DNA from: a virus
Virus genome (UHGV): UHGV-1542943
Direction: 5' to 3' (one strand)
DNA: 29,523 nucleotides
The notes beneath the pieces are model-generated. The model saw nothing but the letters and a program-made list of their open reading frames with translations, was not told the origin of the DNA and did not search any database. Shown here piece by piece: positions 3,041 to 29,523 of the stretch; within the stretch, counting starts at the first letter, position 1; each line of letters starts with the position of its first letter. The translations under genes were made by a program, and so were the position numbers.

Positions 3041-3958
3041 TTACATAGATGTTTCGTTTAATTCTTCCCGACGAACGCTGTAAACGTCGGTGGCTTTTGC
3101 CAGCAGTTCGTCATCATCTGAAAGTTTTTGTGCAATGTATTTGTAAGCCTTATCCAGTTCGGAGACAGTGCTGTAATTCATCGCTGCGCTGGTAAAGGCC
3201 ATCAGCATTTCTTCTGGATCACGGCTATCCGCTTTACGCGTTTGCTCATCAGGCTTTTTCACTGTTTTAGCGTTGATCAGACTGTTCATGCTGGATGCTG
3301 TGCCGTGCTTTGCCTGACTTCTTGGAGTTACGTCACGTTCAATAATGTCAGGTGAGTCGATATATTTACCTTCCATTTCCTCAGCTGTGGCTTGTTGACC
3401 AATCTCCGGCCATGCTTTACGTAATGCCTGTGCCTCTGCGCATTTTGCCAACTGCGCATAAGGGCGCTTTTTCCACATGGCATTTGGTGCCGATGTGTCA
3501 CGCCCCCCAGTTGCATAGTTCTCAATCCAGTATTCTTTGGCGCTAAACTCTACGATTTCCCCGCTTGCCATTCGCTTGCTGACGGTGTACTTACACCACT
3601 GAGGGAAGGTAACCTCCACTCCTGAAAGCGTTTGTGTTACATCTGGACCGAACTCAGGTTCATTAGCGCCTGCGTAATCGCCGGAACGGTAGGCCTGAAT
3701 GCGATAAAGTCCAATGCCAGGCATGACCACGTCGCGCCATTCATTCTTTCCACTCTTCGAGTCTTTAACACTCATTGGTACCTGGTGTACCGGCTTAAGA
3801 AGAGGATCGAGTTGACGCGCCCGGCAGTAATCGACTGCCATCATTACCGATTCATCTTTTGCCCCAGGGTAAATACTGTTTTTCAGAGCGCTCCATGTAA
3901 CTTCATCGATTCCCCGAATAGCCAACACATCATTGGTGATTGCAATTTCGTTGCTCAT
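3041..3958 (-). CDS. recT: RecT/Bet-family single-strand annealing protein
   Basis: 305 aa from ATG at 3958, which overlaps the exonuclease stop (ATGA). Typical RecT features, an acidic C-terminus, and position beside an exonuclease gene. Confidence 0.8.
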   Translation of the reverse strand: MSNEIAITNDVLAIRGIDEVTWSALKNSIYPGAKDESVMMAVDYCRARQLDPLLKPVHQVPMSVKDSKSGKNEWRDVVMPGIGLYRIQAYRSGDYAGANEPEFGPDVTQTLSGVEVTFPQWCKYTVSKRMASGEIVEFSAKEYWIENYATGGRDTSAPNAMWKKRPYAQLAKCAEAQALRKAWPEIGQQATAEEMEGKYIDSPDIIERDVTPRSQAKHGTASSMNSLINAKTVKKPDEQTRKADSRDPEEMLMAFTSAAMNYSTVSELDKAYKYIAQKLSDDDELLAKATDVYSVRREELNETSM

Positions 3959-4776
3959 ACGTACATATCCTGTTTGCGTGCCCACTCAGGGCGTTTAATA
4001 ATTTCCACGCCGCCCCATTCATCGCTGATGCGGCATTCGTGATAGGTATTCAGATCCCGGCGGAACAGAGCGTGCCCGGCATCGACATCCGGCGCATCCA
4101 GCCCGAACACGCGTACCGGATACCGACCACAATCAATGCTTTCGCTCACGGCAAGAAAGAAAAAACCATGCGGCTGACCAGTAACCCTCATTGCGCCTTC
4201 GCGGTACATTGCGTCCTGCACGTGGTAGCGGAATTCCTCGATGTGACGTGCAAAACGGTCCATATCTGCAACCTTTTTCACGTCGACGATCACGTTGTGC
4301 TCGTTCAGCCATTTGTCTGGACGAATTCGGCACAACTCACCCGTCTCTTCATCGTTCCAGTACATTGATGCTTCGCAGTAACCAGGTGCTTCCAGCATCC
4401 AGCGTGCCGCCGGGTGAGCCATTGCGCTATCACGCATCAGCTCCAGTTTCCGCCACTGCTCGGCATCAAGTACCGTAATCCCCATATCCGCTACATCACG
4501 AAGAAATGCTTCTTCGTCAGCTTTACCTTGTTTCGTCCGACGATCGAACTTCGGTGAAACAATGAAGCGTTTGTCGAATTCTCCAGGCTCCAGAAGCAGA
4601 CAGTGCAATGCGGTTCCCATATCCAGTGCAGACTTTTTCTCTTCGTCTTCTGGTGCTGCCTGAACCCATTTAAGAAGCGCCGGATTCTTGGCAACCATGT
4701 CCAGTTGCGACTTACTCACGCCGTCACCGGCGTGGTAGTCTTCGTTGCTGATGTCGAAATAAATTCCCGGTTTCAT
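3955..4776 (-). CDS. PD-(D/E)XK exonuclease (RecE C-terminal / YqaJ-like recombination exonuclease)
   Basis: 273 aa; motif ..CRIRPDKWLNEHNVIVDVKKV (D..D-x-K) plus upstream His and Glu residues typical of PDDEXK recombination exonucleases; adjacent to RecT. Confidence 0.75.
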   Translation of the reverse strand: MKPGIYFDISNEDYHAGDGVSKSQLDMVAKNPALLKWVQAAPEDEEKKSALDMGTALHCLLLEPGEFDKRFIVSPKFDRRTKQGKADEEAFLRDVADMGITVLDAEQWRKLELMRDSAMAHPAARWMLEAPGYCEASMYWNDEETGELCRIRPDKWLNEHNVIVDVKKVADMDRFARHIEEFRYHVQDAMYREGAMRVTGQPHGFFFLAVSESIDCGRYPVRVFGLDAPDVDAGHALFRRDLNTYHECRISDEWGGVEIIKRPEWARKQDMYV

Positions 4777-5380: not shown

Positions 5381-5965
5381 TTATTGTTTGTTTTTTTCGT
5401 TCTGGTTGATGACAAATTCAATGTAACTTTCGATCTTTGCTTTCTCGGTTTCGGGTAACAATGCGTAGCGCGAGCGATCATAGTTGATGGTCGCAGGGTC
5501 GTGCGGGTGAATCAGTAATTCATAGCCGTGACGCCCGAATGCGGATGCAACATTCTCCAGGGTGGAAATGGAAACGCTGACCTCATTGTTTAACAGGCGG
5601 CTGATTGTCACCTGGGCGACGCCGGATGCGCGGTGTAGTTTTCCCTGCGTTGAAAGGTCGCGGCTTTCGCTCATCCAGCGTTCCAGGTTGTGAGCCGCCA
5701 GCTGACCTATATCGCTCGGGCCGACAGGCTGAAAACCTTCCTGAGAAAGCGAGCGATCGATATCAAGCCAGTTACGGGGTTTATTGGCGGCAGCTTCAAT
5801 TTTTCGTGCAACCTGGTCGCCGATAACCTTCTTGCCAAGAGCCCAGCGGTTTACCAGATTTGCCTGAGTTCCAAGTTTTTCTGCCATCCGCGTCTGAACA
5901 CCATTGAATTCACGGTCGATCAAGTCGTTGAGATTTTGCCTGCGGACGTCCTGGATACTTTTCAT
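5381..5965 (-). CDS. Prophage repressor-like protein with two helix-turn-helix domains and no LexA-type peptidase domain
   Basis: 194 aa. First HTH around VQTRMAEKLGTQANLVNRWALGKKVIGDQVARKI; second XRE-like HTH around LHRASGVAQVTISRLLNNEVSVSISTLENVASAFG. No S24 Ser/Lys autocleavage module seen. Divergent from the Cro-like gene. Confidence 0.65.
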   Translation of the reverse strand: MKSIQDVRRQNLNDLIDREFNGVQTRMAEKLGTQANLVNRWALGKKVIGDQVARKIEAAANKPRNWLDIDRSLSQEGFQPVGPSDIGQLAAHNLERWMSESRDLSTQGKLHRASGVAQVTISRLLNNEVSVSISTLENVASAFGRHGYELLIHPHDPATINYDRSRYALLPETEKAKIESYIEFVINQNEKNKQ

Positions 5966-6716: not shown

Positions 6717-7532
6717 ATGAGCAGACATGCAACAGATTGGGCCTGGGAGACAGATCCAGGTAGCTCATCATTAAAGCTCATACTGCTCTCGATGGCTGAC
6801 AGAGCCGATGAATATAACCTCTGCTACCCCAGCATAGAACGCCTCGTTAAAGACACTTGCCTGAATAAAAAAACCGTGCAGGCCGGGCTTATATCGCTCA
6901 TGAAAATGGGGCTTATTTCAGATACCGGAGAGAGAAAGGGAGCGACAAAAAGAGTGCGGGTTTTCTCTCTTAATATAACCAAAAACGGGAACATTAAAGG
7001 CAACCGAGAGGGGGGCAATGAACCCGAAAACGGTAATGTTACCGAAAACGGGAATATACCCAAAAACGGGATGTTGAATGATCCCAAAAACGGGATGTTG
7101 AATGATCCCAAAAACGGGATCCAGAACCAGTCATATAACCAGTCATTTAACCAAGAGAGGGAGAGCAGGACAAAAAACGGGGATTCTGTGCATCATGACC
7201 CCGGCGCAAACAACGCCGTGATGAATAACTTTGTTCCTCCTGGTGGGCCAGGGCAATTAGGCAAATTTGTCATGCATGAACAATGGCAGCCATCAGATGA
7301 TTTTCTTCGGAAAAGCTCATTGCAGGGGATCTACCTGGACAGTCTGCCAACGGCACAGGAACTTGCAGAGTTCAGAATTTACTGGATGGCTGAGGGTAAG
7401 GCATACCATCAGGCACAGTGGGAGCAGAAGCTGGCAAGGCGGCTGCAGATTAGCAGACAGAAGCAATCAACATTACCTGATAACAACGTTCCGCACTGGA
7501 ACAGCCCTGAAGCATGGGAGGATTTCTTGTGA
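6717..7532 (+). CDS. Replication initiator (lambda O-like role; HTH N-domain, repeat-rich middle, DnaT-like C-region)
   Basis: 271 aa; N-terminal HTH-type replication domain (DWAWETDPGSSSLKLILLSMADRADEYNLCYPSIERL); tandem PKNGMLND repeats encoded by the iterons; followed immediately by a lambda P-like gene. Confidence 0.7.
   Translation: MSRHATDWAWETDPGSSSLKLILLSMADRADEYNLCYPSIERLVKDTCLNKKTVQAGLISLMKMGLISDTGERKGATKRVRVFSLNITKNGNIKGNREGGNEPENGNVTENGNIPKNGMLNDPKNGMLNDPKNGIQNQSYNQSFNQERESRTKNGDSVHHDPGANNAVMNNFVPPGGPGQLGKFVMHEQWQPSDDFLRKSSLQGIYLDSLPTAQELAEFRIYWMAEGKAYHQAQWEQKLARRLQISRQKQSTLPDNNVPHWNSPEAWEDFL
7017..7122. repeat. Iteron array (candidate replication origin) inside the O-like gene
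   Basis: Five copies of (A/T)CC(C/G)AAAAACGG(G/T)A, including a perfect 24-bp tandem duplication GATGTTGAATGATCCCAAAAACGG; an AT-rich stretch follows. Resembles lambda ori iterons within O. Confidence 0.6.
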
Positions 7533-14631: not shown

Positions 14632-15479
14632 ATGTGCATGGGTAGCTCACCATCAGTGCCTGCAACACCAGAAGTTCAGGCAGCACCACAGGAGCAGGAT
14701 GCCGCCGTTGTTGATGCCCGCGACGAAGAAACACGTCGCCGTCGCGCTGCTGCTGGTCGTAGTTCTACGCTGCTTACCGTGCGGAATATACAATCAGTGT
14801 TTCTGGTGGTGCGTACTTCACCAGTAGTGATGTCGGCGCGCAACTACAGTTCCCTTATACCGGAACTGATCCTGATACTGGCGATGAGGTGTCAAAAGAA
14901 TTACGTTGCGACATTATTTCTGTAACCAGCAATACCGCTGTAGTGGTTCGTGCTAACAGGAACGTCCCGCCATCCCTCAGGAATGTGGCCACCACGAACT
15001 GGCAGATGGCGCGCCGGACATTTGGAGGCCTGTCTCATCTTGAAGGCCAGACCGTAAACATTCTCTCTGATGCGAACGTGGAACCACAGAAAGTAGTTTC
15101 CGGAGGTGCCGTCACGCTGGAATCTCCGGGGGCTGTAGTGCACATCGGCCTGCCAATAACTGCTGAATTCGAAACACTGGATATCAACATTAGCGGACAG
15201 GAAACGCTGCTGGACAAAAAACAGGTGATCCCGTCCGTTACTCTGGTTGTGAATGCCAGTCGCGGCATCTGGGCGACTACGCCCGGCGGTAAATGGTACG
15301 AATATCCACAGCGTGAATTCGAGTTCTACGATGATCCTGTTGATGATGCTACCGGAAAAGTAGAAGTGAAACTGGACAGTAACTGGGGCAAAAACGGACG
15401 TGTAAAAATCCGTCAGCTTGACCCGTTGCCGCTGTCTGTTCTTGCCGTTATTCCTCGCCTTACTGTTGGGGGATTCTGA
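14632..15479 (+). pseudogene. Virion structural gene with an apparent single-base frameshift near 14770-14780
   Basis: Frame starting at ATG 14632 (GGAG RBS) gives MCMGSSPSVPATPEVQ..AAAGRSSTLLT; a different frame is open from 14763 to the stop at 15477-15479 (..SGGAYFTSSDVGAQLQFPYTGTD..), and that stop overlaps the next gene's start. Confidence 0.4.
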
Positions 15480-15943
15480 TGATTGATGTTCAAATTATTC
15501 CCGCTACCGAAGAGCATCTTCAGATGATTTTGCCGGATGTTCGTCAGACTGATATTGACGAACTGTATGCGGTATCGCTGATGACTACCGAAGATGCGCT
15601 GCGCGTTGGTCTGCGCACTGCGACTATGGCCTGGTCAGGGTTCGCGAACGGAGAACTGGTAACCATGTTTGGCGTATCTCCGGCGTCAATGATCGGTGGC
15701 AATGGTACGCCCTGGCTGGTCGGGACCAGCCGTATTGAAAAATATCAGAAGACATTTCTTCGCCACTGCCGACCTGTATTGCAGCAGATGCTGGCAGTTT
15801 ATCCGCGCCTGGAAAACTACGTCGACGAGCGAAACCATGTTGCCAAAGCATGGCTGCACTGGCTTGGATTTAGGCTTGAAGAAGTCGCGCCTTATGGTGC
15901 TCTTGGTCTTAATTTCCACAGATTTCACATGGAGAGAAAATAA
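15479..15943 (+). CDS. Small virion/assembly protein, first of the coupled internal-protein operon
   Basis: 154 aa; ATG overlaps the previous stop (TGATG) and its stop overlaps the next start (TAATG). Assignment by position. Confidence 0.45.
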   Translation: MIDVQIIPATEEHLQMILPDVRQTDIDELYAVSLMTTEDALRVGLRTATMAWSGFANGELVTMFGVSPASMIGGNGTPWLVGTSRIEKYQKTFLRHCRPVLQQMLAVYPRLENYVDERNHVAKAWLHWLGFRLEEVAPYGALGLNFHRFHMERK

Positions 15944-16518
15944 TGTGCGATCCGGTTATTGCTGGTGGCGCAATGCTCGCCATGAGTGGCATTCAGGCAT
16001 ACACCCAGTACCAACAGGGAAAGTATGCCTCGAAGGTTGCAGAAGCGAACGCAGATATAGCCACAGCTCAGGCAAATGATGCAATAAACAGAGGTAACGC
16101 TGAAGCTGAGCAACGGCGCAGAGAGACCCGACAGCGGCTTGGTACACAGGCGGCGACAATGGGGGCTACCGGCGCTGATTTATCTACAGGTAACGCGCTG
16201 GATATATTTGGTGACACTGCTCAGTTTGGTGCTCTTGATTCGCTAACGACGGTGAATAACGCGCAACGCGAGGCTTACGGTTATCAGGTTCAGGCTGCCA
16301 ACTATAAAGCAGAAGCCAGTTTAGCCCGTAAACAGGGGAATGTGGGAGCAGCAACAACATTGCTCACTGCGCCTCTGAAGGCATACGGTGCGTACCAGAT
16401 GTTTGGTGGGACGTGGAGTCCGTTCTCTAAAGGAAGTACATCTAGTGGTGGGACGCCAATGTTATCTAACTCAGGTTTTATGAATTCTGACTCCCGATTC
16501 AAAATAGGAGGTTACTGA
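15943..16518 (+). CDS. Internal virion protein (T7 gp14-like)
   Basis: 191 aa beginning MCDPVIAGGAMLAMSGIQAYTQ..., similar in length and N-terminal pattern to T7 gp14 (MCWAAAIPIAISGAQAISG.., recalled from memory); Ala/Gln-rich. Confidence 0.5.
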   Translation: MCDPVIAGGAMLAMSGIQAYTQYQQGKYASKVAEANADIATAQANDAINRGNAEAEQRRRETRQRLGTQAATMGATGADLSTGNALDIFGDTAQFGALDSLTTVNNAQREAYGYQVQAANYKAEASLARKQGNVGAATTLLTAPLKAYGAYQMFGGTWSPFSKGSTSSGGTPMLSNSGFMNSDSRFKIGGY

Positions 16519-19265
16519 TGCCTGTTGTTCCTACTACATCCGGACGCCAGGTGCAAAGTCGTGGTGTGCAAACCGGTGGTTTTCAGATCTTCGATGTTCC
16601 TCAAGCAGGTCAGGTGCTGGCGAATGTCGCAGATCAGTATGCGGTGGCATATGGTGAAGCCAGGCAGAAAGCGAATGTTGCTATAGCCCAGGAGGCGTTA
16701 CTGCAATTTAACCAATTTGCAGATGACCAGATTAACAACCCTGAAAGTGGGCTGATTTCTAAACAGGGTAAAAACGCTCTTGGTCAGAGTGACGCTGTTA
16801 TGAAAAATATGCAGGAAAGGGCTCAGGCATTATTAGGCTCAATTCCTGAAAGTGAGGAAAGGAATAAATTATCCTTTCAACTCCAGCAGTCTATGCAGTC
16901 TTATTACAATCAGGCACGTCGATATGAAGTTGGGCAGTTTCAGCAATTCCAAGATCAAACGTATTTGTCAGGAAATGCATTGGCTGTCACTCAGTCTGCG
17001 GGGCTATATAGCGATAACCAAGCATTTGTCGATTTAGCCAAGCAGCGATTTGAATCTATTGATCAATACGCTGATGCGCATGGGCTTCCTGATGAGTGGC
17101 GTGTTCAGCAGAAAACTCAGCTCAAGGAACAAATGGGGCAGCAAGCATGGATAGGAAATATCGCTCAAAAATACAACGAGTTTCTTCAGGTTAATGGAGA
17201 GCCAGGGGATCTTGATGGTGTGAGTCGTGCAATATCACATGGTAATTCATTGGATGCTCGTGGTTTACGTAATAATAACCCTGGTAATATTGAAGCGAGC
17301 AAATCTAACCCGTGGGAAGGTCAGATCGGTAGCGATGGACGTTTTGCAACGTTTGCTACCCCTGAGCATGGAATCCGCGCGTTGGGTAAAAATATGTTGT
17401 CTTACCAGCGTCAAGGCTATGACACCGTTAGCGAGATTGTTAATCGCTATGCTCCGGTTAGTGATGGTAATAATACTGATGCTTATATTAGGGCATTGTG
17501 TGGTGAGCTTGGTGTTGGGGAGAATGATCAGCTTGATATCTCTAACCCAAAGACACTAGCTGCTTTATGTGCTGGGATTATTAAACACGAAAATGGCAGT
17601 ATGCCTTATAGCACCGAACAGCTTGAAACTGGTATCTCGGCAGCCCTTGGTCTAACTAACCTTGATTCACCTAAGCGTTATACGGGCAATGCGGCATTTG
17701 ATGCTATGAGCCCTCAAATGCAAATACAGGCATTGAGGCAGGCTAATGAGCTGAGAAATCAGTACCGCCAGCAGTATGCGGACCAGCTTAGCACCGTAGT
17801 TAAAGATGCATATTCAGCCCTTGATGAAGGATTGAAACCTGAGCAGTTACCTTCTGAGGACGATTTTATCCGGGCCAATGGTCCGCGCATTGGCGCTATG
17901 AAGTGGAAGGATATGCAGGCGCAGATACAATATGGAGGTGTCATTGGTGCCGCTAAAGACCTCACTCCAGAAGGACGACAAGACATTCTTGAACGTTTAC
18001 GTCCACAGGATCCAAACGCTCCTGGATTTGCAGCTAACCAGCAACGCTGGGAGAAAATGCAGGCCAAATTTAAAGAGATGGATAGGGAGTGGGAGATTCA
18101 GCAGGGAAGAAACAGGTTCGTGTCTTCAATGCAAAATAACTTCCCGCTGGACTCGAACGACAAAAACAATCAGGCAGCGGTAGACCGTTATTTCGCGCAG
18201 GATATCGCGCCTTCGTTTTCCATATCTGATCCGCAGAGCATCAATACACTGGTCACCGTCACAACTAAAAGCGGCATGATACCAACTCAGGTTAAAACAA
18301 TGCTTAACAGTGGAGCAACATCAAGAGATCCTGCGCTGGTTGTCCCGATGGCAAAATTCTACGGTCAGTTATTCGATAATAATCCGGCGGCAGCGGCAAC
18401 ACTTGATAAAAGTACGATGGCATTTTACGGCAAGGTTTACGATTATTCCCGCGCTGGCGTGCCGGAGGATAAGGCTGTTGATATGGCTTACAGCCAGGTG
18501 TTCCAACAGGATGACCGAATGAAACAGATGCTTTCCACTGCCATGCGAGACAAAAAATATGTCGCGGCGAGGGCAACTGCTGCACAAAATAACGCCAGCA
18601 GTCTGACTTCCTTTGGTTCGTGGTCTCCGGATATTACCGATCCAGGAAAATCAAATGCGGCCTATCAGCGAGATTACCAGACAATTTACGATGCTAACTT
18701 TGTACAGACAGGTGGCGATGCAGAACAGGCTGAGAAAATGACCAATGCCATGATCAGAACCACTTGGGGAGTTTCTACGGTTAATGGCAAAGCAGAGGTT
18801 ATGAAGTATGCACCTGAGGCATTGTACGGAGTAAATAATGGTGCTGGTAACTGGATACAGGGGCAGTGGGAGCAGGAAAAACGCGAGCTTAAATCAAAAT
18901 CCTTTGGCGGTCCTCGCAGTGATACGGACTTAATACTTGTTTCTGATGGCCTTACGGCAAGGGATAGGAGTTATGCTGTTATGGTTTTACAGCCTGACGC
19001 AAACGGAGCGATAGAACCGAGAAATTATATTGGAGAAAATGGTCTCCCTGTTCGTTTCAAGCCGGATCAGCTGACATCTCCAATGTACAGGCAAACCATT
19101 CAGTTCCAGCAACAGCGTGTTGATGAGGCTAGAGTGCGGAGAGAAGGCAATCCGCTGCCGCAGTTCAGCAATAAAGATGGATATACTCCTCCAGATCTGA
19201 CCAAACCATTCGGTTATGGTTCAGCCAATTACCTTCCGAGCAATATATACGCAGGGGGCAAATAA
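16518..19265 (+). CDS. Large internal virion / ejection protein (915 aa)
   Basis: Translationally coupled large protein in the gp15/gp16 position of podovirus structural operons; no catalytic motif confirmed. Confidence 0.55.
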   Translation: MPVVPTTSGRQVQSRGVQTGGFQIFDVPQAGQVLANVADQYAVAYGEARQKANVAIAQEALLQFNQFADDQINNPESGLISKQGKNALGQSDAVMKNMQERAQALLGSIPESEERNKLSFQLQQSMQSYYNQARRYEVGQFQQFQDQTYLSGNALAVTQSAGLYSDNQAFVDLAKQRFESIDQYADAHGLPDEWRVQQKTQLKEQMGQQAWIGNIAQKYNEFLQVNGEPGDLDGVSRAISHGNSLDARGLRNNNPGNIEASKSNPWEGQIGSDGRFATFATPEHGIRALGKNMLSYQRQGYDTVSEIVNRYAPVSDGNNTDAYIRALCGELGVGENDQLDISNPKTLAALCAGIIKHENGSMPYSTEQLETGISAALGLTNLDSPKRYTGNAAFDAMSPQMQIQALRQANELRNQYRQQYADQLSTVVKDAYSALDEGLKPEQLPSEDDFIRANGPRIGAMKWKDMQAQIQYGGVIGAAKDLTPEGRQDILERLRPQDPNAPGFAANQQRWEKMQAKFKEMDREWEIQQGRNRFVSSMQNNFPLDSNDKNNQAAVDRYFAQDIAPSFSISDPQSINTLVTVTTKSGMIPTQVKTMLNSGATSRDPALVVPMAKFYGQLFDNNPAAAATLDKSTMAFYGKVYDYSRAGVPEDKAVDMAYSQVFQQDDRMKQMLSTAMRDKKYVAARATAAQNNASSLTSFGSWSPDITDPGKSNAAYQRDYQTIYDANFVQTGGDAEQAEKMTNAMIRTTWGVSTVNGKAEVMKYAPEALYGVNNGAGNWIQGQWEQEKRELKSKSFGGPRSDTDLILVSDGLTARDRSYAVMVLQPDANGAIEPRNYIGENGLPVRFKPDQLTSPMYRQTIQFQQQRVDEARVRREGNPLPQFSNKDGYTPPDLTKPFGYGSANYLPSNIYAGGK

Positions 19266-22200
19266 TGCCGATATATGAACAGGATCCTAAAGAGTTGCTT
19301 GGCGAGGATATTCAGCAAATAGCAGCACCTGATGACAGTAATTTCTATATGGAAACACCTTCTTTGCTTTCTGCTGTGAACCCATTTACCAGTGATCAAC
19401 GCGTTCAAAGGTCTAGACAAGCAGCATTTCGTATAGATAACACGCTGGGTAGCTTTATTGCCAGTGCTCCTTTCAGTCAGTTTGACAGGGTTGAAGGATA
19501 TAACCCATTTGATAACGATGCAGCAGATATTAAAGGCTATGAAGATTTTGCAGATTCGTTTATCAACTCCGGTTCGCCTGAAGAAACAATGGCAATTAAA
19601 CATCGAATCGATCAGCAGAGAGCTGACATGGAATACAATTCAGGCTTGGGATTTGCTGGTACAGTCTCTTCTGTAGCAATGAGATTAGCAGATCCATTCA
19701 ATGCGATTTCTATGTTTATTCCGTTCGGCGCTGTCGTTCGTGGCGGTCGTATTGCAGAAACAGCCGGGCGTTTTGCCCTGGCGAATGCTGCTGGCAGTGT
19801 TGCTTCAGAGGCCGCATTACAGGCCACTCAGGAAGCTCGCTCACCGATGGAGAGCGTATCGAACGTTGTTGTTGATGCTCTCGTTGGTGGGATCCTTGGT
19901 GCTGGTGCACAGCTACTTGCTGGACCTGGCGCGCGCGAGGCAGTGGTTAACTCAGTAGGTAATCATTTGCGAGGTATGGATTCTCCTCAAAGCATTGGTG
20001 CAGCTCAGGTTTTCAATACCACACTCGATCAGGAACAGCTCGCTGGACTTGGACTTGCTAACAAAACGTTGAGTGTCACTCCTGCTGGCCGCTTGGCGCA
20101 ATCACCATCTCTTGTCTCCCGTCAGATTAACCAGCAGCTTGCCGAAAATAACTATTTCTTCGCCAAAAATGATGAGGGGTTGGCTACGTTTACGGCAGTC
20201 GAGACTAAGATTAAGCAATACGACGCCATGCTTTATAAGCAGATGGAAGCCACTCGTGATGCTTACCAGCAGTACAGCAAATCTGTTAGCGCCCGCGGCG
20301 TGAAGAGGATGAACTTTATTGATTTCAATGAAGCTGTTGGCATGGCTATGCGCCGTGGTGATCAGAGTGATATTCCTGAGGTTTCACAAGCAGCCGCCAG
20401 AATCCGCCCCATTTTCGAGACCACAAAAGCCCGTATGCAGGAACTGGGGATCCTTCCTAAGGATATCGATGTCGTGACGGCGAAAAGTTATCTTCCCCGC
20501 ATTTATAAGTTCGATAAGATACTTTCCGACCGCACTGAATTCAGAGGGCGAATTGCCAACTGGATACAAGGGATTAGTGCCAAAGGTGCTGACAAAGCAG
20601 GTCAGCGAATTGAAAGGATAAATTCATTGCTAAAAACTGCAGAGGAATCGGCACCGCACGCTGATGCTCTCGCTAGTGAAATCGCTGAAGCGGAGAAATG
20701 GTCTGGTAAAAAAATTCTACTCATGGAAGAACTGGATAAACGAAATAAGCTTATATCTCAGGAGACTGACACACAGGCGCGTCTTACAAGAATAGAAAAA
20801 GAGTTGGCCGAGACTTCATCAGAAAAACTTCAGGCAAGAATGATGAAAGAAAGCTCTGACCTTAAAACACGCCTTGATGATATAGCGCAGGCAAAGAGTG
20901 AGCTTCCTGTCTATCAGCGCCATATGGAGTTGTTGGATAATCCACGGAAATATCGTTCTGAGCTTCGCCGACTGCAAAAACGGGCAAATTCAACCACAAG
21001 GCTGAATGCAAGCCGCGAACGAGCACTGAAGCAGATGGAGCCTCTATCCCGAGAGGAAGCAGAGGACGCTGCTGACGAGATCGTGAATAAAATAATAGGC
21101 GCACCTTCCGGGCTTGTACCAGCCGATATTATCCCAGAGAGACTCGTTGGTCGGGCTGGTTTCACTAAAAGCAGAACGCTGCTTATTCCTGATGAGCGTA
21201 TAGAAGATTTTCTTGAATCAGATGTTAACTACATCATGGAAAGTTATCTCCGGCAGGTGGCACCAGAAATTGAGCTGACTGCGCAGTTTGGCCGTAAAGA
21301 TATGGGGGAGCAAATCCGTCAGGTTAGTGAGGAATATACCCGGCTAATAAAAGAGGCTAAAACACCTAAACGACGTGCAGTTCTTGAGAAGCAACGGGAG
21401 GCTGATATTAGGGATATTACGGCTATGCGTGATCGACTGCTTGGTACTTACGGTGCACCTCAAGATCCACGCAGTTTCTTTGTTCGTGCCGGGCGAGTTG
21501 CTAGGAATATTAACTTCCTCCGTTTGCTTGGTGGAATGACCGTCTCCGCTGCAACTGATCTGATGCGACCGATGATGCAGCATGGCCTGAGAAAATCTCT
21601 CGGACCAATGGTAAGCATGCTTAAAAATATGGACTCAGTGAAGATTGCAACCAGGGATTTGCGAGAAATGGCCGTTGGGCTTGATTATGTCCTGTCTACG
21701 CGTACAAAGGCTATAGCGGATCTTACTGACCCATATAGCCGGAGAAGCGCCGCTGAGCGAGGCCTGAACTGGATGACGCAGAAATTCGGTAACTGGACGC
21801 TGATGAATCAGTGGAACAGCGCACTTAAATCATGGTCCGGGATGATAGTGCAGTCGAGGATACTTGACGCGGCTCGCCAAGTTTCTGCTGGTGGCACGCT
21901 CTCCAAAAGTGAAATGCGGAAGATGGCACAGGTCGGCATCAATGAAGATGTTCTGCGCCGAATCGGGGAGCAATTCGGGAAGCACGGAGAGGATATGGAC
22001 GGGCTGTTAACCGGGCATAGTCATCTGTGGGATGACCGTTTCGCTAGAGAGATTTTCCAGTCTGCAGTGCTGAAAGATGTAGACTCAGTGATTGTAACGC
22101 CTGGCGTAGGTGATACACCGCTGTTTTTTAGTAAAGAAGGCTGGAAGATGATCACGCAGTTCAAAACGTTTATCTTCGCACAGCATAACAGGGTGCTAGT

Positions 22201-22654
22201 ATCTGGTATCCAGCAGGGCGATGCTGCATTCTATCTTGGTGCGCTTGGCACGATTGCGCTTGGCTCAATGGTCTATATGATGAAACAGAAGTTAAGCGGT
22301 CGCGATATCGACTACAGCTGGAATAACCTTGTGAAAGAGGGGATCGACCGGGGCGGAATGCTTGGCTGGCTCTCTGAGCCGCTGAATACCGTTGAGAACA
22401 TAAGCGGCGGTAGGTTTGGTCTTGGCGCGATGTTTGGTGCGCCTCCGGTATCAAGGTTTCAGAGTCGTAATGCTATTGGTGCTTTACTTGGTCCTACCTT
22501 TGATCTTGGCGGTGATGCCGCGACGGTTGCGAATGGTGTACTTAACGGAGAATTTGACAGCCAGCAAACCCACGCGGTCCGTAAAATGCTACCTTTTCAG
22601 AACCTGTGGGCAATATCACCGTTACTAAATAAAGTTGAAGAGCAGATGAAATAG
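19265..22654 (+). CDS. Large internal virion / ejection protein (1129 aa)
   Basis: Second giant coupled ORF; coiled-coil-rich middle region (..KELAETSSEKLQARMMKESSDLKTRLDDIAQAKSEL..); hydrophobic Gly/Ala-rich C-terminal segments. Confidence 0.55.
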   Translation: MPIYEQDPKELLGEDIQQIAAPDDSNFYMETPSLLSAVNPFTSDQRVQRSRQAAFRIDNTLGSFIASAPFSQFDRVEGYNPFDNDAADIKGYEDFADSFINSGSPEETMAIKHRIDQQRADMEYNSGLGFAGTVSSVAMRLADPFNAISMFIPFGAVVRGGRIAETAGRFALANAAGSVASEAALQATQEARSPMESVSNVVVDALVGGILGAGAQLLAGPGAREAVVNSVGNHLRGMDSPQSIGAAQVFNTTLDQEQLAGLGLANKTLSVTPAGRLAQSPSLVSRQINQQLAENNYFFAKNDEGLATFTAVETKIKQYDAMLYKQMEATRDAYQQYSKSVSARGVKRMNFIDFNEAVGMAMRRGDQSDIPEVSQAAARIRPIFETTKARMQELGILPKDIDVVTAKSYLPRIYKFDKILSDRTEFRGRIANWIQGISAKGADKAGQRIERINSLLKTAEESAPHADALASEIAEAEKWSGKKILLMEELDKRNKLISQETDTQARLTRIEKELAETSSEKLQARMMKESSDLKTRLDDIAQAKSELPVYQRHMELLDNPRKYRSELRRLQKRANSTTRLNASRERALKQMEPLSREEAEDAADEIVNKIIGAPSGLVPADIIPERLVGRAGFTKSRTLLIPDERIEDFLESDVNYIMESYLRQVAPEIELTAQFGRKDMGEQIRQVSEEYTRLIKEAKTPKRRAVLEKQREADIRDITAMRDRLLGTYGAPQDPRSFFVRAGRVARNINFLRLLGGMTVSAATDLMRPMMQHGLRKSLGPMVSMLKNMDSVKIATRDLREMAVGLDYVLSTRTKAIADLTDPYSRRSAAERGLNWMTQKFGNWTLMNQWNSALKSWSGMIVQSRILDAARQVSAGGTLSKSEMRKMAQVGINEDVLRRIGEQFGKHGEDMDGLLTGHSHLWDDRFAREIFQSAVLKDVDSVIVTPGVGDTPLFFSKEGWKMITQFKTFIFAQHNRVLVSGIQQGDAAFYLGALGTIALGSMVYMMKQKLSGRDIDYSWNNLVKEGIDRGGMLGWLSEPLNTVENISGGRFGLGAMFGAPPVSRFQSRNAIGALLGPTFDLGGDAATVANGVLNGEFDSQQTHAVRKMLPFQNLWAISPLLNKVEEQMK

Positions 22655-22655
22655 G

Positions 22656-23507
22656 ATGAAAAAAATAAATTTGTTTTTTGGCATAGTGCTTTCAATAGTC
22701 TCTGTAAATCCTACAGCTGCCAGTTCATTGCAATGCAATAAGGATAACTTTGATGCATGCAAAACGTGTGAACAATTATCAAAGGCTATCGACTTAAAAG
22801 AACCTAATCGTGGCGATTACTATAGAGGGGCTTTATGGAATGGGCTTTACGCCTCTTATGTAATTAATTGCCCTGTGGTTGCTGAGAAGTTACTGAGCCA
22901 TGGTGCTATACCATCATATGGCGGATATATGGGGTCTATGGGGGCGGTTCTGACAGGAAAATGGCCTCATAACAATGAATCAATAAATCTTTCATGGGCA
23001 GATTTGCTTATAAAACATGGATTTGATGTTAATAGGCATACGGGGAATTATAAATCAGCTACTGAAGTATGGGCTATAGATAAAAAACAGATTGAATATA
23101 AGTCAGTTTTTGACAAGTTAATTCAATCCAGCGAAGTAAAACCACTCGATCCTTCAAGAAATTTAGAATGGTGTGCGTCTGAAGGGTATCGCTCAGTTGT
23201 CGTTTATTCCCTTAACTCATGTATAGAAAATGCTATAAAACGTTTGGATGATGGTGTTTCTTCAGCGTCTGATATTTCATCAGCAGCCGTAAATTCCTGT
23301 ACTAGCGATGTAGAAAATTTCAATAAGCATTTGGTATGCAAAGCAGCTGTTAAAGAAAACTCTGATAAAGAGAGAAGCAACGTTTACCAGTTATTAACCA
23401 GTGATAGTCAAATGAATAAAAATGTTATTGATATGCTGAAGGAAAGAAATATTGAAACGGTTCTTGAATTTAGAGCTGAAAATCGATCAGCGAAAACTGC
23501 ACAGTGA
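22656..23507 (+). CDS. AT-rich cargo gene encoding a secreted/periplasmic Cys-containing protein (283 aa)
   Basis: Sec-type signal peptide MKKINLFFGIVLSIVSVNPTAAS; ATG 2 nt after the stop of the 1129-aa gene; markedly AT-rich; followed by a terminator. Confidence 0.6.
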   Translation: MKKINLFFGIVLSIVSVNPTAASSLQCNKDNFDACKTCEQLSKAIDLKEPNRGDYYRGALWNGLYASYVINCPVVAEKLLSHGAIPSYGGYMGSMGAVLTGKWPHNNESINLSWADLLIKHGFDVNRHTGNYKSATEVWAIDKKQIEYKSVFDKLIQSSEVKPLDPSRNLEWCASEGYRSVVVYSLNSCIENAIKRLDDGVSSASDISSAAVNSCTSDVENFNKHLVCKAAVKENSDKERSNVYQLLTSDSQMNKNVIDMLKERNIETVLEFRAENRSAKTAQ

Positions 23508-23510
23508 TCA

Positions 23511-23538
23511 AACAGGCCGCTTTCGCGGCCTTGTTTTT
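23511..23538 (+). terminator. Rho-independent terminator ending the late operon
   Basis: GGCCGC-tttc-GCGGCC followed by TTGTTTTT. Confidence 0.7.
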
Positions 23539-23575
23539 AACGAATGCCACCGCCACCCGGGCGGGAATCCGCAGA

Positions 23576-23600
23576 CACAAAAAAGCCCGCAACGCGGGCT
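23576..23600 (-). terminator. Rho-independent terminator for the minus-strand toxin operon
   Basis: GCCCGC-gttg-GCGGGC followed by TTTTTT on the minus strand, immediately after the stop at 23600-23602. Confidence 0.65.
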
Positions 23601-24137
23601 TATTCCTTCCATTTATCAGAAAAAAGATCTTCTTCTAAAGGCATTGGTTCTGTTTTTGTTTTCTGAAAGAATTGATAACTGATAGTGATTGCTGCCTCTT
23701 TAAACTCTTCTTGCTCAGTTATGTTGTGGGCATCTGCGTCAACAAAAAACATAACCAGCGCATCACGATTGTGATTTACCGAATAAACTAAAAAGCAATC
23801 ACTTGTTGGTATGCATTTTACTTGCACAGACGCTATATGCATCCCAAGATGATTTTTTACCAGTGTGTTTTTTATCACTATCTTCTGGAATATAGTCTTG
23901 GTTATCGACATGAGTATGCCTGACATTTAGTTTAAGCATTTCTGTCGGACGAGCAAATGCAGCATCTTTACCAAGAGATGGATGGTATCCCGTTTTCCAA
24001 TACTGGGTAAAGGCATCAGATACTTTCTTCAGCTCAAGATCAGATGCACAAAGGGCCGAGAAATTTTGCGTATGCAATACTCGACCCTTATATCTGACAA
24101 TTTGATTTTTATCATTCTGCGACGCAGACGAACTCAT
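23600..24137 (-). pseudogene. YafO-like toxin gene split across two overlapping frames (23799-24137 and 23600-23926)
   Basis: Frame A (MSSSASQ...LGKDAAFARPTEMLKLNVRHTHV) and frame B (..SDCFLVYSVNHNRDALVMFFV..) each resemble consecutive parts of E. coli YafO as recalled from memory (..FGRDALY...VAHIHL..., ..AHLVYCQGAFDEQAWLL..). The 128-nt overlap contains two T6/A6 homopolymer tracts (23853-23858, 23868-23873). Confidence 0.4.
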
Positions 24138-24291
24138 AATTTTCCTTATTGTTACGAGAATCAAAGAAAGCGCGGGATACGCGACTTGCGTGATCTTTTG
24201 TCATAGTAACTTTTACGTACTCTACGCTTCCATTGAAAGAACGTCTTGCGGCAGCTTGCGCTCTACGCATCTGCAATTTTTCGTTTCGCAT
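24112..24291 (-). CDS. Small basic protein (59 aa) upstream of and overlapping the toxin-like gene; candidate antitoxin
   Basis: MRNEKLQMRRAQAAARRSFNGSVEYVKVTMTKDHASRVSRAFF...; its stop overlaps the toxin start by 26 nt, and the toxin ATG has an AAGGAAAA RBS. Not similar to YafN by eye. Confidence 0.4.
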   Translation of the reverse strand: MRNEKLQMRRAQAAARRSFNGSVEYVKVTMTKDHASRVSRAFFDSRNNKENYEFVCVAE

Positions 24292-24351
24292 GACATTACC
24301 TCATATCTCATAAGTTCATTACACGGATTAATAAAAATGAAACCAATCCGT

Positions 24352-24366
24352 TTACCCTTGAGGTAA
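24352..24366. promoter_or_regulatory. Operator TTACCCTTGAGGTAA (perfect)
   Basis: Between the antirepressor gene end and the toxin operon start. Confidence 0.6.
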
Positions 24367-24438
24367 TAGTACGCTATTCACCCACAGTCTGCAATCTGTA
24401 CAGAATTATTTAAAGGCACATCCCTGTGCCGCCGCCCG

Positions 24439-25149
24439 TCAGAAGAACCCAGCCTTGTCGTTGATGTACTCCGCGTGCGTCTGGATATCACGCAGGCATT
24501 TGCTCACACCGACGATGTAGCAGAACATGGTGGTCAGTTCCGCCGCCGCGCCCGATACGTCATGCCCGTCTTCCTGTAACTGGTTCAGCAAATTCATCAG
24601 CAGTGAGTTCTCCGTCAGGCCGAGAACACCAGACGGCGAGTGAATCAGGCTGCGGTAGCCGGGCTTCAGTGGGGCACTGTAGGTTTTGTTCTCTATCTTC
24701 ATCGCCTGCATCACTGCTGATGCTGTGGCGTTTGCAACCTGGTCGGCAACCATCTTTATGCGTTCTTCCTGCGGGAGCGAGTTTTTAATGTAACTTCCGG
24801 TGCGGCGGATCTGAGGAAGAACCTCACCTGTAACCCATTTACGAAAGCGGTAGGGGATAGTGCCTGGTGTCACTGCGTCGCGACAGCGGAGGATCAGTGT
24901 GTAGAGGCCTGACTCGGAGATGATGTTGATCTCTTTTACTCGGCTGTCAAAAATTGCACGATGTTCATGCCCTATGTTGAACATAGACCTTTCATCATCA
25001 TCCAGTTTTTCAAGTGCTTGGGTGACGTTTTGGATACGCAGCGCACTACAAACGTCTTGGGCTACAAACCATGGTTGGCCATCGATAATGATGGAACGGA
25101 TAGGGTTAACAGATTCAAATTTGAAGATGGCAGTTTGAGCATTAGCCAT
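24439..25149 (-). CDS. Bro-N domain antirepressor (Ant-like)
   Basis: N-terminal ..FKFESVNPIRSIIIDGQPWFVAQDVCSALRIQNVTQALEKLDDDE is a classic Bro-N signature; C-terminal antirepressor-type domain; ATG at 25149 with a GGAG RBS. Confidence 0.8.
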   Translation of the reverse strand: MANAQTAIFKFESVNPIRSIIIDGQPWFVAQDVCSALRIQNVTQALEKLDDDERSMFNIGHEHRAIFDSRVKEINIISESGLYTLILRCRDAVTPGTIPYRFRKWVTGEVLPQIRRTGSYIKNSLPQEERIKMVADQVANATASAVMQAMKIENKTYSAPLKPGYRSLIHSPSGVLGLTENSLLMNLLNQLQEDGHDVSGAAAELTTMFCYIVGVSKCLRDIQTHAEYINDKAGFF

Positions 25150-25418
25150 GGTGGTTATCTCCACTTAGTGATTTTAATCACCACCGCAACGCCAATTACT
25201 GGTGGTGAACTGGACAAGGTTGGCGTACCGGCCTAAGTGGTACCGGCGTCCTTTCGGACCCCTGCCCAGCCCACCATAATTCGGATATAGCTGTGCTTAA
25301 CGCATAAAAAAAACACGTCTGGCGTGGTATGCGCCACTTAGTAACTCGGGACGCCAATCCCGGCACTGGATTTTGCCAGTACCCGATTACTATGGCACAA
25401 GAGGAGTGCGATGTAAAT

Positions 25419-26751: not shown

Positions 26752-29523
26752 ATGACGGTCTCAACCGAAGTTGACCACAACGAATACACCGGTAACGGAG
26801 TTACGACATCGTTTCCGTATACTTTTCGAATTTTCAGAAAATCAGACCTGGTTGTTCAGGTGTCTGACCTGAACGGGAACGTAACAGAATTGGTTCTGGA
26901 TACCAGTTATACGGTAACTGGGGCGGGCACTTATAGTGGCGGTTCTGTTGTTCTTCCGTCGCCGCTTGCTACTGGCTGGCGAATTACGATAGAGCGTGTG
27001 CTTGATGTGGTGCAGGAGACTGATCTTCGCAATCAGGGGAAATTTTTCCCCGAAGTTCATGAGGATGCATTTGACTACTTGACGATGCTGATCCAGCGAT
27101 GTTTTGGGTGGTTCAGACGTGCATTGATGAAACCATCTTTGCTTGCAAAATATTACGATGCAAAGCAAAACAGAATTTCTAACCTTGCAGATCCATCACT
27201 TGAGCAGGATGCTGTAAATAATCGCTCAATGCGTAAGTATGTGGATGCTGCAATTGCTGGTGTTGTCGGTGGTTTCGGATGGTTTATCCAGTATGGTTCA
27301 GGCGCGGTATATAGAACGTTCCAGGATAAGATGCGTGACACAGTTAGCCCTAAAGATTTTGGTGCTGTAGGTGATGGTCAGTATGGAGGGAGAGCGACGA
27401 ATGACGATGCTGCTTTTGAGAGCCTTGAAGAATCTCATACAGGGAAAGTAATTGATCTGCAGGGTAGAACTTTTCAAACAACGAAGGATTTCACTAAAAA
27501 TAAATATTTTAATGGTTACTTCCGTTATCCAGTGAAGCTGTTGCCTGATGATGAATTCCCAGAATCAAGGATGCAGACAAGAAAAAAAGGTGTTATTAGC
27601 GGTTTCAGACCATCAACGCCAAATCATGTTAAATCTGGTTTGAGGCTTGCAACTATTAAAAACACGACAATTCAGGGAGCCGTCCTTGATTATTACGACA
27701 ATATTCTTTATACGCTGCAAAATGTCAGCGGTTCTGCAGCTAGTAACGACGAAATTAATAAAATTGTTGCCTATAACTGGTTTGGTCAGGATACGCTGAT
27801 GCCGCTATGGGAGACACAGGGTAGTTTTGATATAGGGCACCAATCACTGGGATTGACCATTGGTCGTATCGGTTTCCGTAATACGCGGGGGCGATTGCAG
27901 ATATGGGGATTGGCAGGAGTATCGAAAGGCGATCAACGTGCGCAGTACCTTGCCCGATTCACACCAGTATCCGGTGCGGCAATTACTCCAGAGTTTTTCC
28001 GAATCTGGGATGACACATATTTAAACCATGTCAATGTACTTTGCACTGACCCGACCAGTACATGGTTAATAACCACAGCAAAACGATATGTCGGCCCTGG
28101 TGAGGAATCTGGTACACCAGATCAGTTGCGTTATTACGTGAAGGTCTTTCATACCAGTGTGTTCGTTAACCCAGATGAATACGGCTATGACTATCGTAAT
28201 GCGGCAACTTTTGAGTTTGAGATAGCTGATTTTATCCGTGATATGCAGGCTGTTGCATGTGACGGAACAACAATCTATTTCTGTCAGGCTGGCTCTGCGT
28301 ATTCCTCTACTCGCAAATATTTGCATATGTACACGCTGGACGGAGTTTATCTTGGTGTGCAACAAATTCAAGCTGGCGCTGGACGTGCGTATGATATTGC
28401 CGATCCAGAAAATACCGGAACTCCAGATCCGACAAAGCTGACATATGAGCCGGAAGCGATGTTTTTCCGCATGATTGTCGGTGGGTATGATCTTGTAATG
28501 GGAAATACCAACGGTATCCCGGACGGTGACACTGGTCGTGAAACGTCATTCTATACCCTGATGCCGCAACAGAGCATGCATATTAAGACTACGTCAAGTT
28601 CTCAGCCCGGCATTATTCTGGATTCAACTTACGATATCGTAACTAATAGCGGCTTATTGACTATCGGTAAAATAAACGACGATGGTTCGGTTACTAATCA
28701 CCTTGAATTGTCCAGTGGTCTGGCTAAGTTATCTAATGCCACTGCTACAGCGTCTCAGTTTGAAACTGCTAATCCACTGCGAGATGTTACGTATCATGTA
28801 TCTGCTGCCGGAGATGCGGGCATTTACGACTACACTAACTCACGCTGGCTATTCAAATCCCCTGTTTTGTCTACAGACCTTGCTTATATTGGTCAGCCGC
28901 TTGAAGTGCTCGGCGCTGTGCGCCCGTTCAAGACGAACACATACTCATGTGGAACCAGCACACGCTTGTGGACAACTGTATATGCAACGACAGGCAGCAT
29001 CAACACATCAGACGCGCGTTTCAAGAGCGACCCGTTAAGTATATCTCAACTTAGCGAATCGATGGGTTTCGAACCAGATGCGATACTTGACGCATGGGGG
29101 AAAGTGAACCTGATCGTTTACCAGTGGCTATCAGCTGTAGATGCTAAGGGCGCTGATAGAGCACGTTGGCATTATGGCATTATTGCGCAGCAGGTGCGGG
29201 ATGCATTTATTGCCGCCGGGATTGATGGTACTCGCTTCGGGCTTTTGTGCTACGACGAATGGGAAGACCAGTATGAGCCTGTAATGGCTTGGCGTGATGT
29301 TACCATTACTTATACGGATGCGGACGGTGTCGAGAATAGCTACATCAAGAAAGAAGAATATGATACTGGCGAGAAAACCTTGGTTACTCCGGCCGGAAAC
29401 CGTTGGGGTATACGTGTTGATGAATGCTTGTGGCTGGAAGCTGCTTATCAGCGCAGGCGTTGTGACAGGATTGAAGAACGTCTCAAATATCTTGAGGGGG
29501 AGAAGATGTTAAGCAAAGAGTAA
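26752..29523 (+). CDS. Tailspike / tail fiber with T7 gp17-like N-terminal domain and C-terminal intramolecular chaperone (peptidase S74-like) domain
   Basis: 923 aa; N-terminus ..YTGNGVTTSFPYTFRIF..DLVVQV..LVLDTSYTV..GWRITIERV..TDLRNQGKFFPEVHEDAFDYL follows the gp17-type attachment-domain pattern; C-terminal ..NTSDARFKSDPLS.. matches the S-D-x-R-x-K autocleavage motif; stop TAA at the window end. Confidence 0.75.
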   Translation: MTVSTEVDHNEYTGNGVTTSFPYTFRIFRKSDLVVQVSDLNGNVTELVLDTSYTVTGAGTYSGGSVVLPSPLATGWRITIERVLDVVQETDLRNQGKFFPEVHEDAFDYLTMLIQRCFGWFRRALMKPSLLAKYYDAKQNRISNLADPSLEQDAVNNRSMRKYVDAAIAGVVGGFGWFIQYGSGAVYRTFQDKMRDTVSPKDFGAVGDGQYGGRATNDDAAFESLEESHTGKVIDLQGRTFQTTKDFTKNKYFNGYFRYPVKLLPDDEFPESRMQTRKKGVISGFRPSTPNHVKSGLRLATIKNTTIQGAVLDYYDNILYTLQNVSGSAASNDEINKIVAYNWFGQDTLMPLWETQGSFDIGHQSLGLTIGRIGFRNTRGRLQIWGLAGVSKGDQRAQYLARFTPVSGAAITPEFFRIWDDTYLNHVNVLCTDPTSTWLITTAKRYVGPGEESGTPDQLRYYVKVFHTSVFVNPDEYGYDYRNAATFEFEIADFIRDMQAVACDGTTIYFCQAGSAYSSTRKYLHMYTLDGVYLGVQQIQAGAGRAYDIADPENTGTPDPTKLTYEPEAMFFRMIVGGYDLVMGNTNGIPDGDTGRETSFYTLMPQQSMHIKTTSSSQPGIILDSTYDIVTNSGLLTIGKINDDGSVTNHLELSSGLAKLSNATATASQFETANPLRDVTYHVSAAGDAGIYDYTNSRWLFKSPVLSTDLAYIGQPLEVLGAVRPFKTNTYSCGTSTRLWTTVYATTGSINTSDARFKSDPLSISQLSESMGFEPDAILDAWGKVNLIVYQWLSAVDAKGADRARWHYGIIAQQVRDAFIAAGIDGTRFGLLCYDEWEDQYEPVMAWRDVTITYTDADGVENSYIKKEEYDTGEKTLVTPAGNRWGIRVDECLWLEAAYQRRRCDRIEERLKYLEGEKMLSKE

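Follow-up and report, generated by a model that had tools for sequence, protein, structure and literature searches.

The epsilon15/phiV10 phages were described decades ago, were sequenced in the 2000s and are common in Escherichia coli. The phiV10 and epsilon15 records annotate an integrase of one kind (INT_P4 in phiV10), a DnaT-like protein and RecT, with a tail protein, internal virion proteins and a tailspike adjoining; a lambda P-family protein and a Bro-N protein are likewise annotated in the phiV10 record. In the ejectosome of phage T7 (PDB 7K5C, 6YT5, 7EYB, 9JYY), the proteins are encoded in the order nozzle, gp13, gp14, a large protein and a larger one. The same order is found in the stretch of DNA considered here, the virus genome UHGV-1542943, which is 29,523 nucleotides long and represents bases 1-29523 of metagenome scaffold ENA ERZ28577339 scaffold_634. 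This whole stretch is referred to as the window. Four coupled genes of the window very probably constitute the DNA-ejection cassette of a phiV10/epsilon15-like temperate short-tailed phage that resides at guaA in E. coli, a cassette that is now stranded in a defective prophage.

The element is already known in kind, and a 99%-identical isolate is in GenBank. The best phage match is this isolate, EC.W1-9 (PP445227.1), a phage of 40.6 kb from sewage, which displays 99.1% nucleotide identity over 8.8 kb (window 14774-23575). It has the same four cassette genes, the same 283-amino-acid gene and the same backbone, and its 1129-amino-acid protein is 99.5% identical to that of the window. It differs in that the full portal/capsid/tail block is present and in having another tailspike body, other accessory genes and another early variable region. 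The EC.W1-9 record annotates the cassette genes all as hypothetical.

Phage phiV10 (genus Uetakevirus) aligns over 50.4% of the window with a mean nucleotide identity of 95.4% (local range 95-98%) and with identical gene order. The aligned parts comprise the integrase, recombination, replication and terminase genes, a tail-gene remnant, gp13 and most of gp14. Close relatives are all short-tailed phages, and the shared plan, together with backbone and virion genes that are highly identical to those of phiV10, places the element in the Uetakevirus-like group. The overall similarity to phiV10 is probably below the 70% genus line of the International Committee on Taxonomy of Viruses, as a rough sum from ∼50-60% coverage and ∼96% identity, and the EC.W1-9 type may be a sister group of Uetakevirus rather than Uetakevirus proper; no genus is given in the EC.W1-9 record. 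An origin from a Stx phage (933W-like) was entertained first and was dropped on the results of similarity searches. With respect to location, an intact relative prophage (L002) adjoins guaA in E. coli F719. In the alignment, base 1 of the window falls on L002 position 2196, within the 3′ end of guaA, and the left end of the window is the left end of the prophage beside guaA.

A preliminary description of this DNA, made from its letters, had pointed to a coupled set consisting of a small protein, a gp14-like protein that begins with MC and two giant proteins of 915 and 1129 amino acids, in the layout of T7-family ejection proteins. The open reading frames (ORFs) are exactly as described there and all lie on the + strand (Table 1). 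Each of the cassette junctions is a one-base overlap, TGATG or TAATG, and is preceded by a G-rich stretch that resembles a Shine-Dalgarno sequence; because of these stop/start overlaps and upstream stretches, translational coupling is regarded as real. The T7-type layout also holds: in order, the genes encode a gp13-like protein, a gp14-family protein, a large protein that occupies the gp15 position and a homolog of gp16.

The 154-amino-acid protein is encoded directly after the nozzle gene, which is the position of gp13 in T7. It is assigned to PHROG 308, to which T7 gp13 belongs too (E 1e-42), and is 62% identical to epsilon15 gp13. The 191-amino-acid protein is a member of the gp14 family: the Pfam T7_gp14 model scores 31.3 bits against a cutoff of 27, with residues 1-167 on profile positions 1-182 of 187, and the same family is precomputed for this gene on contigs L007 and L008. 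Over residues 1-170 the protein is 95% identical to phiV10 gp17. Searches of PDB sequences by phmmer with the 191-, 154- and 1129-amino-acid proteins returned nothing useful.

The 1129-amino-acid protein is homologous to T7 gp16 in its body and C-terminal module. T7 gp16 matches the same PHROG 342, from position 4 of the profile, and has an SLT domain at residues 15-127. An alignment of a 25-sequence profile of the 1129-amino-acid family to T7 gp16 by hhalign gives a probability of 96.5% (E 8e-10, 398 aligned columns); an earlier run with a shallow alignment of 11 sequences had given a probability of 40% only. A hydrophobic helix at residues 988-1006, which is the hydropathy peak of the protein, aligns with the T7 gp16 peak at residues 1136-1154. 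In translated nucleotide searches (tblastn), the C-terminal half matches genes annotated as gp16 in Autographiviridae phages of Proteus and Burkholderia, and in pelagiphages. Clustered at 50%, the family comprises 4,540 representatives according to an exhaustive search, with a shared core in the C-terminal ∼530 residues. When a hidden Markov model of the family was run against PDB sequences, coiled-coil noise and a weak match to Gp29 of 9vvp were obtained, and T7 gp16 was not recovered. A Pfam DUF919 match at residues 530-575 (20852-20989) is a helical stretch of 46 residues that hits a baculovirus family, and it was rejected as meaningless. The RefSeq product name 'DUF919 family protein' stems from this match and is misleading for a gp16-family gene.

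Lytic transglycosylase motifs had been proposed as something to look for in the large proteins. In the 1129-amino-acid protein, Pfam and PHROG searches detect no SLT domain, and the PHROG 342 alignment begins at position 192. In its place, a cell wall hydrolase domain of a different type, that of the Hafnia phage Enc34 endolysin (PDB 7Q47; PHA02564), is present in the 915-amino-acid protein. The domain matches 7Q47 in both sequence and fold, and the catalytic glutamate is conserved: E358 is its equivalent and is invariant in 21 homologs of the 915-amino-acid protein. The muralytic activity of the Enc34 domain has been shown experimentally (PMC8943055). As judged from these matches, the predicted muralytic function is encoded in the 915-amino-acid protein instead of the gp16 homolog. 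T7 carries an SLT domain at the gp16 N-terminus, whereas the window has the Enc34/PHA02564 type in the middle of the gp15-position protein. The Enc34 endolysin itself, an enzyme of 26 kDa from a lysis cassette, has a membrane anchor at its C-terminus, whereas its counterpart in the window is embedded in a 915-amino-acid virion protein that, by analogy with T7, would be used at entry. A further arrangement is seen in PDB 9vvp_L (Gp29, 1295 amino acids), a solved virion protein in which an Enc34-type hydrolase domain is N-terminal and a later part shows weak profile similarity to the gp16-like family. The lysin domain is thus located on the gp16-like protein in the 9vvp phage and on the gp15-position protein in the window. 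No paper on PDB 9VVP or 9VVR was found in the literature.

This hydrolase domain also bears on the nature of the two large proteins. If they were tape-measure or long-tail proteins, or ejection proteins of the P22 type, the T7-type assignment would fail, and a match to the PHROG tape-measure family phrog_2276 in the 915-amino-acid protein (E 9e-29) might be cited for this. The match, the sole one to a tape-measure family, is confined to residues 194-411, that is, to the hydrolase domain, which is common to many virion-associated lysins. The full-length matches are to PHROG 1044/992 and to PHROG 342, the T7 gp16 family; furthermore, the genes are situated between a nozzle gene in the T7 gp12 position and a podovirus tailspike, and the close relatives are short-tailed throughout. 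A tape-measure or P22-type identity is hardly conceivable on these grounds, and the tape-measure or tail-sheath homology that was named beforehand as fatal to the T7-type assignment does not apply.

The 915-amino-acid protein is 42% identical to epsilon15 gp15 over residues 1-572, and apart from the hydrolase domain it is helical. An AlphaFold2 model has a mean pLDDT of 75.9, and Foldseek ranks four T7 gp15 structures at the top of its PDB matches to this model (E 9e-5 to 3e-3; TM-scores low, ∼0.2). At the sequence level the similarity to T7 gp15 is not significant, as BLASTP gives E 0.018 over 84 residues and hhalign gives probabilities of 2.3% against T7 gp15 alone and 0.4% profile to profile. 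The PHROGs differ (1044/992 versus 1339 for T7 gp15), and homologs of the 915-amino-acid protein have no precomputed Pfam family, whereas the T7 gp15 relatives all carry PF26212. The protein is best termed a gp15-position protein, with possibly a gp15 fold according to the model. Of the suggested profile comparisons with T7 gp14, gp15 and gp16, those with gp14 (Pfam) and gp16 (PHROG 342 and hhalign) bear out the proposed families, and that with gp15 does not in terms of sequence. The likeness to T7 consists of homology to gp14 and to the C-terminal module of gp16, of a PHROG in common with gp13, and of T7 gp15 as the best, though low-scoring, fold match of the 915-amino-acid model. T7 differs in being lytic, the window element being temperate, and in having a fiber where the window has a tailspike that is set off from the cassette by ∼4 kb of accessory genes.

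Upstream of the cassette, the preliminary description overlooked a loss of head and tail genes. Alignment to the intact prophage L002 reveals that 7,324 bp are deleted, with a 6-bp microhomology (TTACCG) at the junction: window 10927-14779 corresponds to L002 12992-16844 and window 14774-23575 to L002 24169-32970, and the missing part is L002 16845-24168. The genes lost are most of a gp3-like gene, the portal, a small gp5-like gene, the protease, major capsid and cement genes, a small gp9-like gene, the genes for capsid staple and tail adaptor, and the 5′ part (∼627 codons) of the nozzle gene. The morphogenetic module of portal, protease, capsid, adaptor and nozzle is therefore incomplete, and the window contains no portal, capsid or tail-tube genes. 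The nozzle remnant is 91% identical to epsilon15 gp12 residues 630-825 and covers positions 357-552 of the 552 in PHROG 15566. Since the genes from portal to most of the nozzle are lost, this copy cannot build virions alone, and a defective prophage carries its ejection genes as cargo. The window also illustrates that a reader may take a metagenomic prophage for complete although every head gene is missing.

The window is a metagenome scaffold, and the 7.3-kb gap could in principle be an artefact of assembly in a prophage that is really intact, a reading with which the absence of the junction from 5,426 complete E. coli genomes is in keeping. The exact junction ORF is nevertheless found on four assembled contigs that represent at least two independent datasets, and one of these comes from an unrelated Sequence Read Archive (SRA) run, SRR15338130, assembled by a different pipeline. 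A 6-bp repeat is, moreover, far too short for assembly collapse, and the flanking sequence is unique on both sides, which makes an artefact extremely unlikely. The deletion is taken as real because the same junction is on four contigs, one of them from a different SRA run.

A real deletion raises the prospect that the element is a helper-dependent, satellite-like hitchhiker. In that case the integrase, replication genes, terminase, ejection proteins and tailspike would be its own, and a phiV10-type phage, co-resident or superinfecting, would supply heads and tails. The microhomology is a simple one with out-of-frame remnants on either side, which is typical of accidental deletion, although the loss is restricted to head and tail-tube genes: the terminase, the ejection cassette and the tailspike gene are intact, and lysis genes lie beyond the window end. 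In favor of this reading, the variant is on four contigs from at least two datasets, and intact relatives are common in E. coli, so that helpers would be available. However, the contig from the different sequencing run is 99.95% identical to the window, with no base substitutions and one 8-bp gap; as the two compared contigs differ by this gap alone, they probably represent one clone and no spreading lineage, and none of the complete genomes carries the variant. An 8-bp frameshift in the neighboring toxin gene of one copy suggests decay. No capsid-remodelling or helper-interference genes and no defense-system matches were found. A hitchhiking way of life is very unlikely on balance, and the element is more readily viewed as a defective prophage that has retained the ejection genes of its phage.

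Several observations weigh against the reading of the four genes as the ejection cassette of a defective prophage. The Pfam Phage_T7_Gp13 model scores 13.6 bits on the 154-amino-acid protein, below the cutoff of 25, and PF03906 (Phage_T7_tail) scores 19.7 bits on the tailspike (E 7e-4), below the cutoff of 25.2. The deletion junction occurs in 0 of the 5,426 genomes, and the biological reality of the deletion rests on the four assembled contigs. The roles of the cassette proteins in the cell envelope are, in addition, transferred from T7 and would hold to the extent that the analogy does.

In contrast to the layout itself, the combination of genes is not unusual. The preliminary description considered that a T7-type module had been joined to a lambdoid backbone of lysogeny and replication genes. 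The P4-type integrase, lambda P-like loader, RecT and Bro-N protein are all present according to Pfam, but the combination is the standard phiV10/epsilon15 plan. The likeness to these phages extends over the INT_P4 integrase, RecT, repressor, DnaT-like and lambda P proteins, terminase, tail genes, gp13, gp14, large internal proteins, Bro-N (in phiV10) and the tailspike anchor. An integrase, lambda P, RecT and Bro-N together with ejection genes is the ordinary architecture of the epsilon15/phiV10 group and no novel graft.

Nor is T7-type ejection machinery in temperate elements rare in enterobacteria, as had been suggested. The family flanks around the junction are found in 551 of the 5,426 E. 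coli genomes, which puts the frequency of this prophage family at ∼10%. The window-type cassette is matched in 162 of these genomes (119 with at least 80% coverage), the phiV10-type three-protein cassette in 416 (317 with at least 80% coverage) and the cassette of phage TL-2011b in 80 (45 with at least 80% coverage). The two large proteins both have close homologs on chromosomes of Klebsiella, Salmonella, Raoultella, Serratia, Yersinia, Rahnella, Pectobacterium, Proteus, Providencia and Morganella. A review lists Epsilon15, P22, Sf6, HK620 and CUS-3 as carrying gp14/gp15/gp16 counterparts (PMC8954989).

The three cassette types occupy the same slot. Head and tail genes of EC.W1-9 are 96-98.5% identical to those of phiV10 up to a crossover in the 3′ end of the gp14 gene, at window position 16424 and phiV10 position 12479; phiV10 similarity is then lost until the Bro-N region (window 24428). 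The slot is window 16424-24428, phiV10 12479-19540 and TL-2011b 24110-29841. It contains three proteins in phiV10 and epsilon15 (PHROGs 992, 1145 and 684), two proteins plus the 283-amino-acid gene in the window and EC.W1-9, and another two in TL-2011b. Where the window has two proteins, phiV10 and epsilon15 have three (∼840, 600-630 and 820-920 amino acids). The first of these large proteins shares only the N-terminal ∼500-570 residues with that of the window, at 42-44% identity, and phiV10 gp20 displays a weak C-terminal match to the 1129-amino-acid protein (E 2e-4). Phage TL-2011b (NC_019445; from enterohaemorrhagic E. coli O103:H25) resembles the window in its backbone and in the two-giant layout, with proteins of 154, 181, 905 and 1004 amino acids, and its gp38 is 36-42% identical to the 1129-amino-acid protein. 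It nonetheless represents a third allele: gp37 is just 29% identical to the 915-amino-acid protein, and its homologs are annotated as SLT-domain proteins in RefSeq, whereas the window counterpart carries the Enc34-type domain.

Sequence comparison suggests that a portal/tail chassis that is 96-98% identical accepts any of three non-orthologous ejection cassettes. This is a milder proposition than a helper-dependent element, and a likelier one. The cassette swap fits the picture of ejection proteins as "mosaically conserved" (PMC8954989) and is a modestly interesting feature of the group. Immediately behind the gp16-like gene lies the gene for the 283-amino-acid protein, which accompanies this cassette allele as part of the swapped segment. 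This gene is also in EC.W1-9 and in L002. The protein has an N-terminus like that of a signal peptide, with hydrophobic residues 4-24, belongs to the unannotated PHROG 6118 and has no Pfam match.

Gene order, coupling, family assignments and domain content are features of the window itself, and from the T7 ejectosome model and established T7 biology a course of events at infection can be proposed. In a complete phage, e.g. EC.W1-9, the gp13-like, gp14-family, 915- and 1129-amino-acid proteins would be packed in the head atop the portal. Binding of the tailspike to a surface polysaccharide would lead to expulsion of the cassette proteins through the tail. The gp14-family protein would then form a channel in the outer membrane, and the 915-amino-acid protein a conduit across the periplasm, the peptidoglycan being cut by the Enc34-type domain (in T7, by the SLT domain of gp16). 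The gp16 homolog would finish the tunnel and might reach the inner membrane via its conserved C-terminal module and hydrophobic helix. In the window copy, no such ejection would take place without a helper phage.

Table 1. Position of genes, domains and other features in the window
Feature	Position	Strand	Basis or description
Tyrosine integrase, P4 type	246-1496	+	Pfam Arm-DNA-bind_3, Phage_int_M, Phage_integrase; phiV10 homolog annotated INT_P4
RecT recombinase	3041-3985	-	Pfam RecT, 96 bits
PD-(D/E)XK exonuclease	3955-4776	-	Pfam DUF3799, 77 bits
HTH repressor-like regulator	5381-5965	-	Pfam HTH_3; epsilon15 and phiV10 homologs annotated putative repressor
DnaT-like initiator	6717-7532	+	Pfam DnaT, HTH_36
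Lambda P-family helicase loader	7514-8314	+	Pfam Phage_lambda_P, E 4.5e-57
Variable block of small ORFs, early region	8561-10522		
Terminase small subunit	10944-11618	+	Terminase pair: Pfam Terminase_2; PHROG 2 and 5902; 95% nucleotide identity to phiV10
Terminase large subunit	11615-13090	+	As for small subunit
296-amino-acid protein	13087-13977	-	PHROG 4780
tRNA-Arg (TCT)	14128-14204	-	ARAGORN; between terminase genes and deleted portal gene
Junction ORF	14632-14925	+	First 49 amino acids are small gp3-like protein (PHROG 831), then out of frame into tail gene
Deletion microhomology	14774-14779		
Tail nozzle remnant (epsilon15 gp12 type, T7 gp12 position)	14889-15479	+	C-terminal 196 residues of ∼825-amino-acid protein
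154-amino-acid internal virion protein, T7 gp13-like	15479-15943	+	PHROG 308, E 9e-62
191-amino-acid internal virion protein, T7 gp14 family, starts MC	15943-16518	+	Pfam PF24072 T7_gp14
915-amino-acid ejection protein, gp15 position	16518-19265	+	PHROG 1044 over full length; mostly helical, inserted cell wall hydrolase domain
Enc34/PHA02564-type peptidoglycan hydrolase domain	17256-17714	+	Residues 247-399 of 915-amino-acid protein
1129-amino-acid ejection protein, T7 gp16 homolog	19265-22654	+	PHROG 342, E 4e-233, profile positions 192-1227 of 1235
Conserved C-terminal module of gp16 homolog	21221-22543	+	Residues 653-1093; aligns to T7 gp16 residues 795-1261
283-amino-acid protein	22656-23507	+	PHROG 6118
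YafO-family toxin gene, split	23600-24164	-	
Bro-N domain protein, antirepressor-like	24439-25164	-	Pfam Bro-N, 71 bits; phiV10 similarity resumes at 24428
Tailspike	26752-29523	+	Anchor N-domain, distinct receptor-binding body, C-terminal Peptidase_S74 (E 1e-11)

A gp17-type tailspike had been described as following the cassette. The gene is real and has PHROG 1640 in common with T7 gp17, but it does not follow directly, as it starts ∼4.1 kb downstream. The interval is occupied by the 283-amino-acid, secreted-looking gene, the split YafO-family toxin gene, the Bro-N gene on the - strand and two small ORFs. The PHROG 1640 matches are in the same N-terminal part of the two proteins, at residues 1-166 of the window spike (E 3e-97) and residues 5-149 of T7 gp17 (E 7e-21). 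An hhalign comparison of the tailspike N-domain with T7 gp17, made with a shallow alignment of Neff 1.3, was not significant. Residues 1-165 are 70% identical to epsilon15 gp20, and this anchor domain is common to epsilon15 and phiV10; it also resembles that of Dpo31/Dpo36-type depolymerases (E 4e-34). PDB matches of the tailspike are to 8ck1-type depolymerases and to the 3gw6 chaperone. The body (residues ∼215-720) is unlike those of phiV10, epsilon15 and EC.W1-9, and the C-terminus is an endosialidase-type self-cleaving intramolecular chaperone. The window end coincides with the tailspike stop codon. Uetakevirus prophages of E. coli are routinely used in tailspike studies (PMC10408124, PMC9782041).

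An 8-bp deletion (ATTTTTCC) near position 23836 splits the YafO-family toxin gene into ORFs of 108 and 121 amino acids. The gene is intact, at 181 amino acids, in sister contig L008, and no substitutions separate that contig from the window.

Other genes of the window are accessory to the plan described above. The intact prophage L002 has the same tRNA-Arg (TCT) gene in the same location, and the gene is native to the prophage family. The gene for the 296-amino-acid protein runs antisense in the interval from the terminase genes to the tRNA. Its product is hydrophobic in N-terminal segments and contains a long coiled coil; PADLOC matches of the protein (DndD, LmuB) are weak and of coiled-coil type only. 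A PADLOC scan of the accessory ORFs detected no defense system and gave weak coiled-coil matches and one methyltransferase only. The variable block of the early region has either no similarity or patchy similarity to phiV10, EC.W1-9, TL-2011b and L002.

The large cassette genes, which are publicly termed "hypothetical" or "DUF919 family protein", can now be given names: one encodes an ejection protein of the gp16 family, and the other a gp15-position ejection protein that contains a lysin domain of the Enc34 type. The phage group to which they belong would constitute a natural swap experiment for the docking of ejection proteins on the portal, and swapped cassettes on one virion chassis could aid structural work on core assembly in podoviruses.

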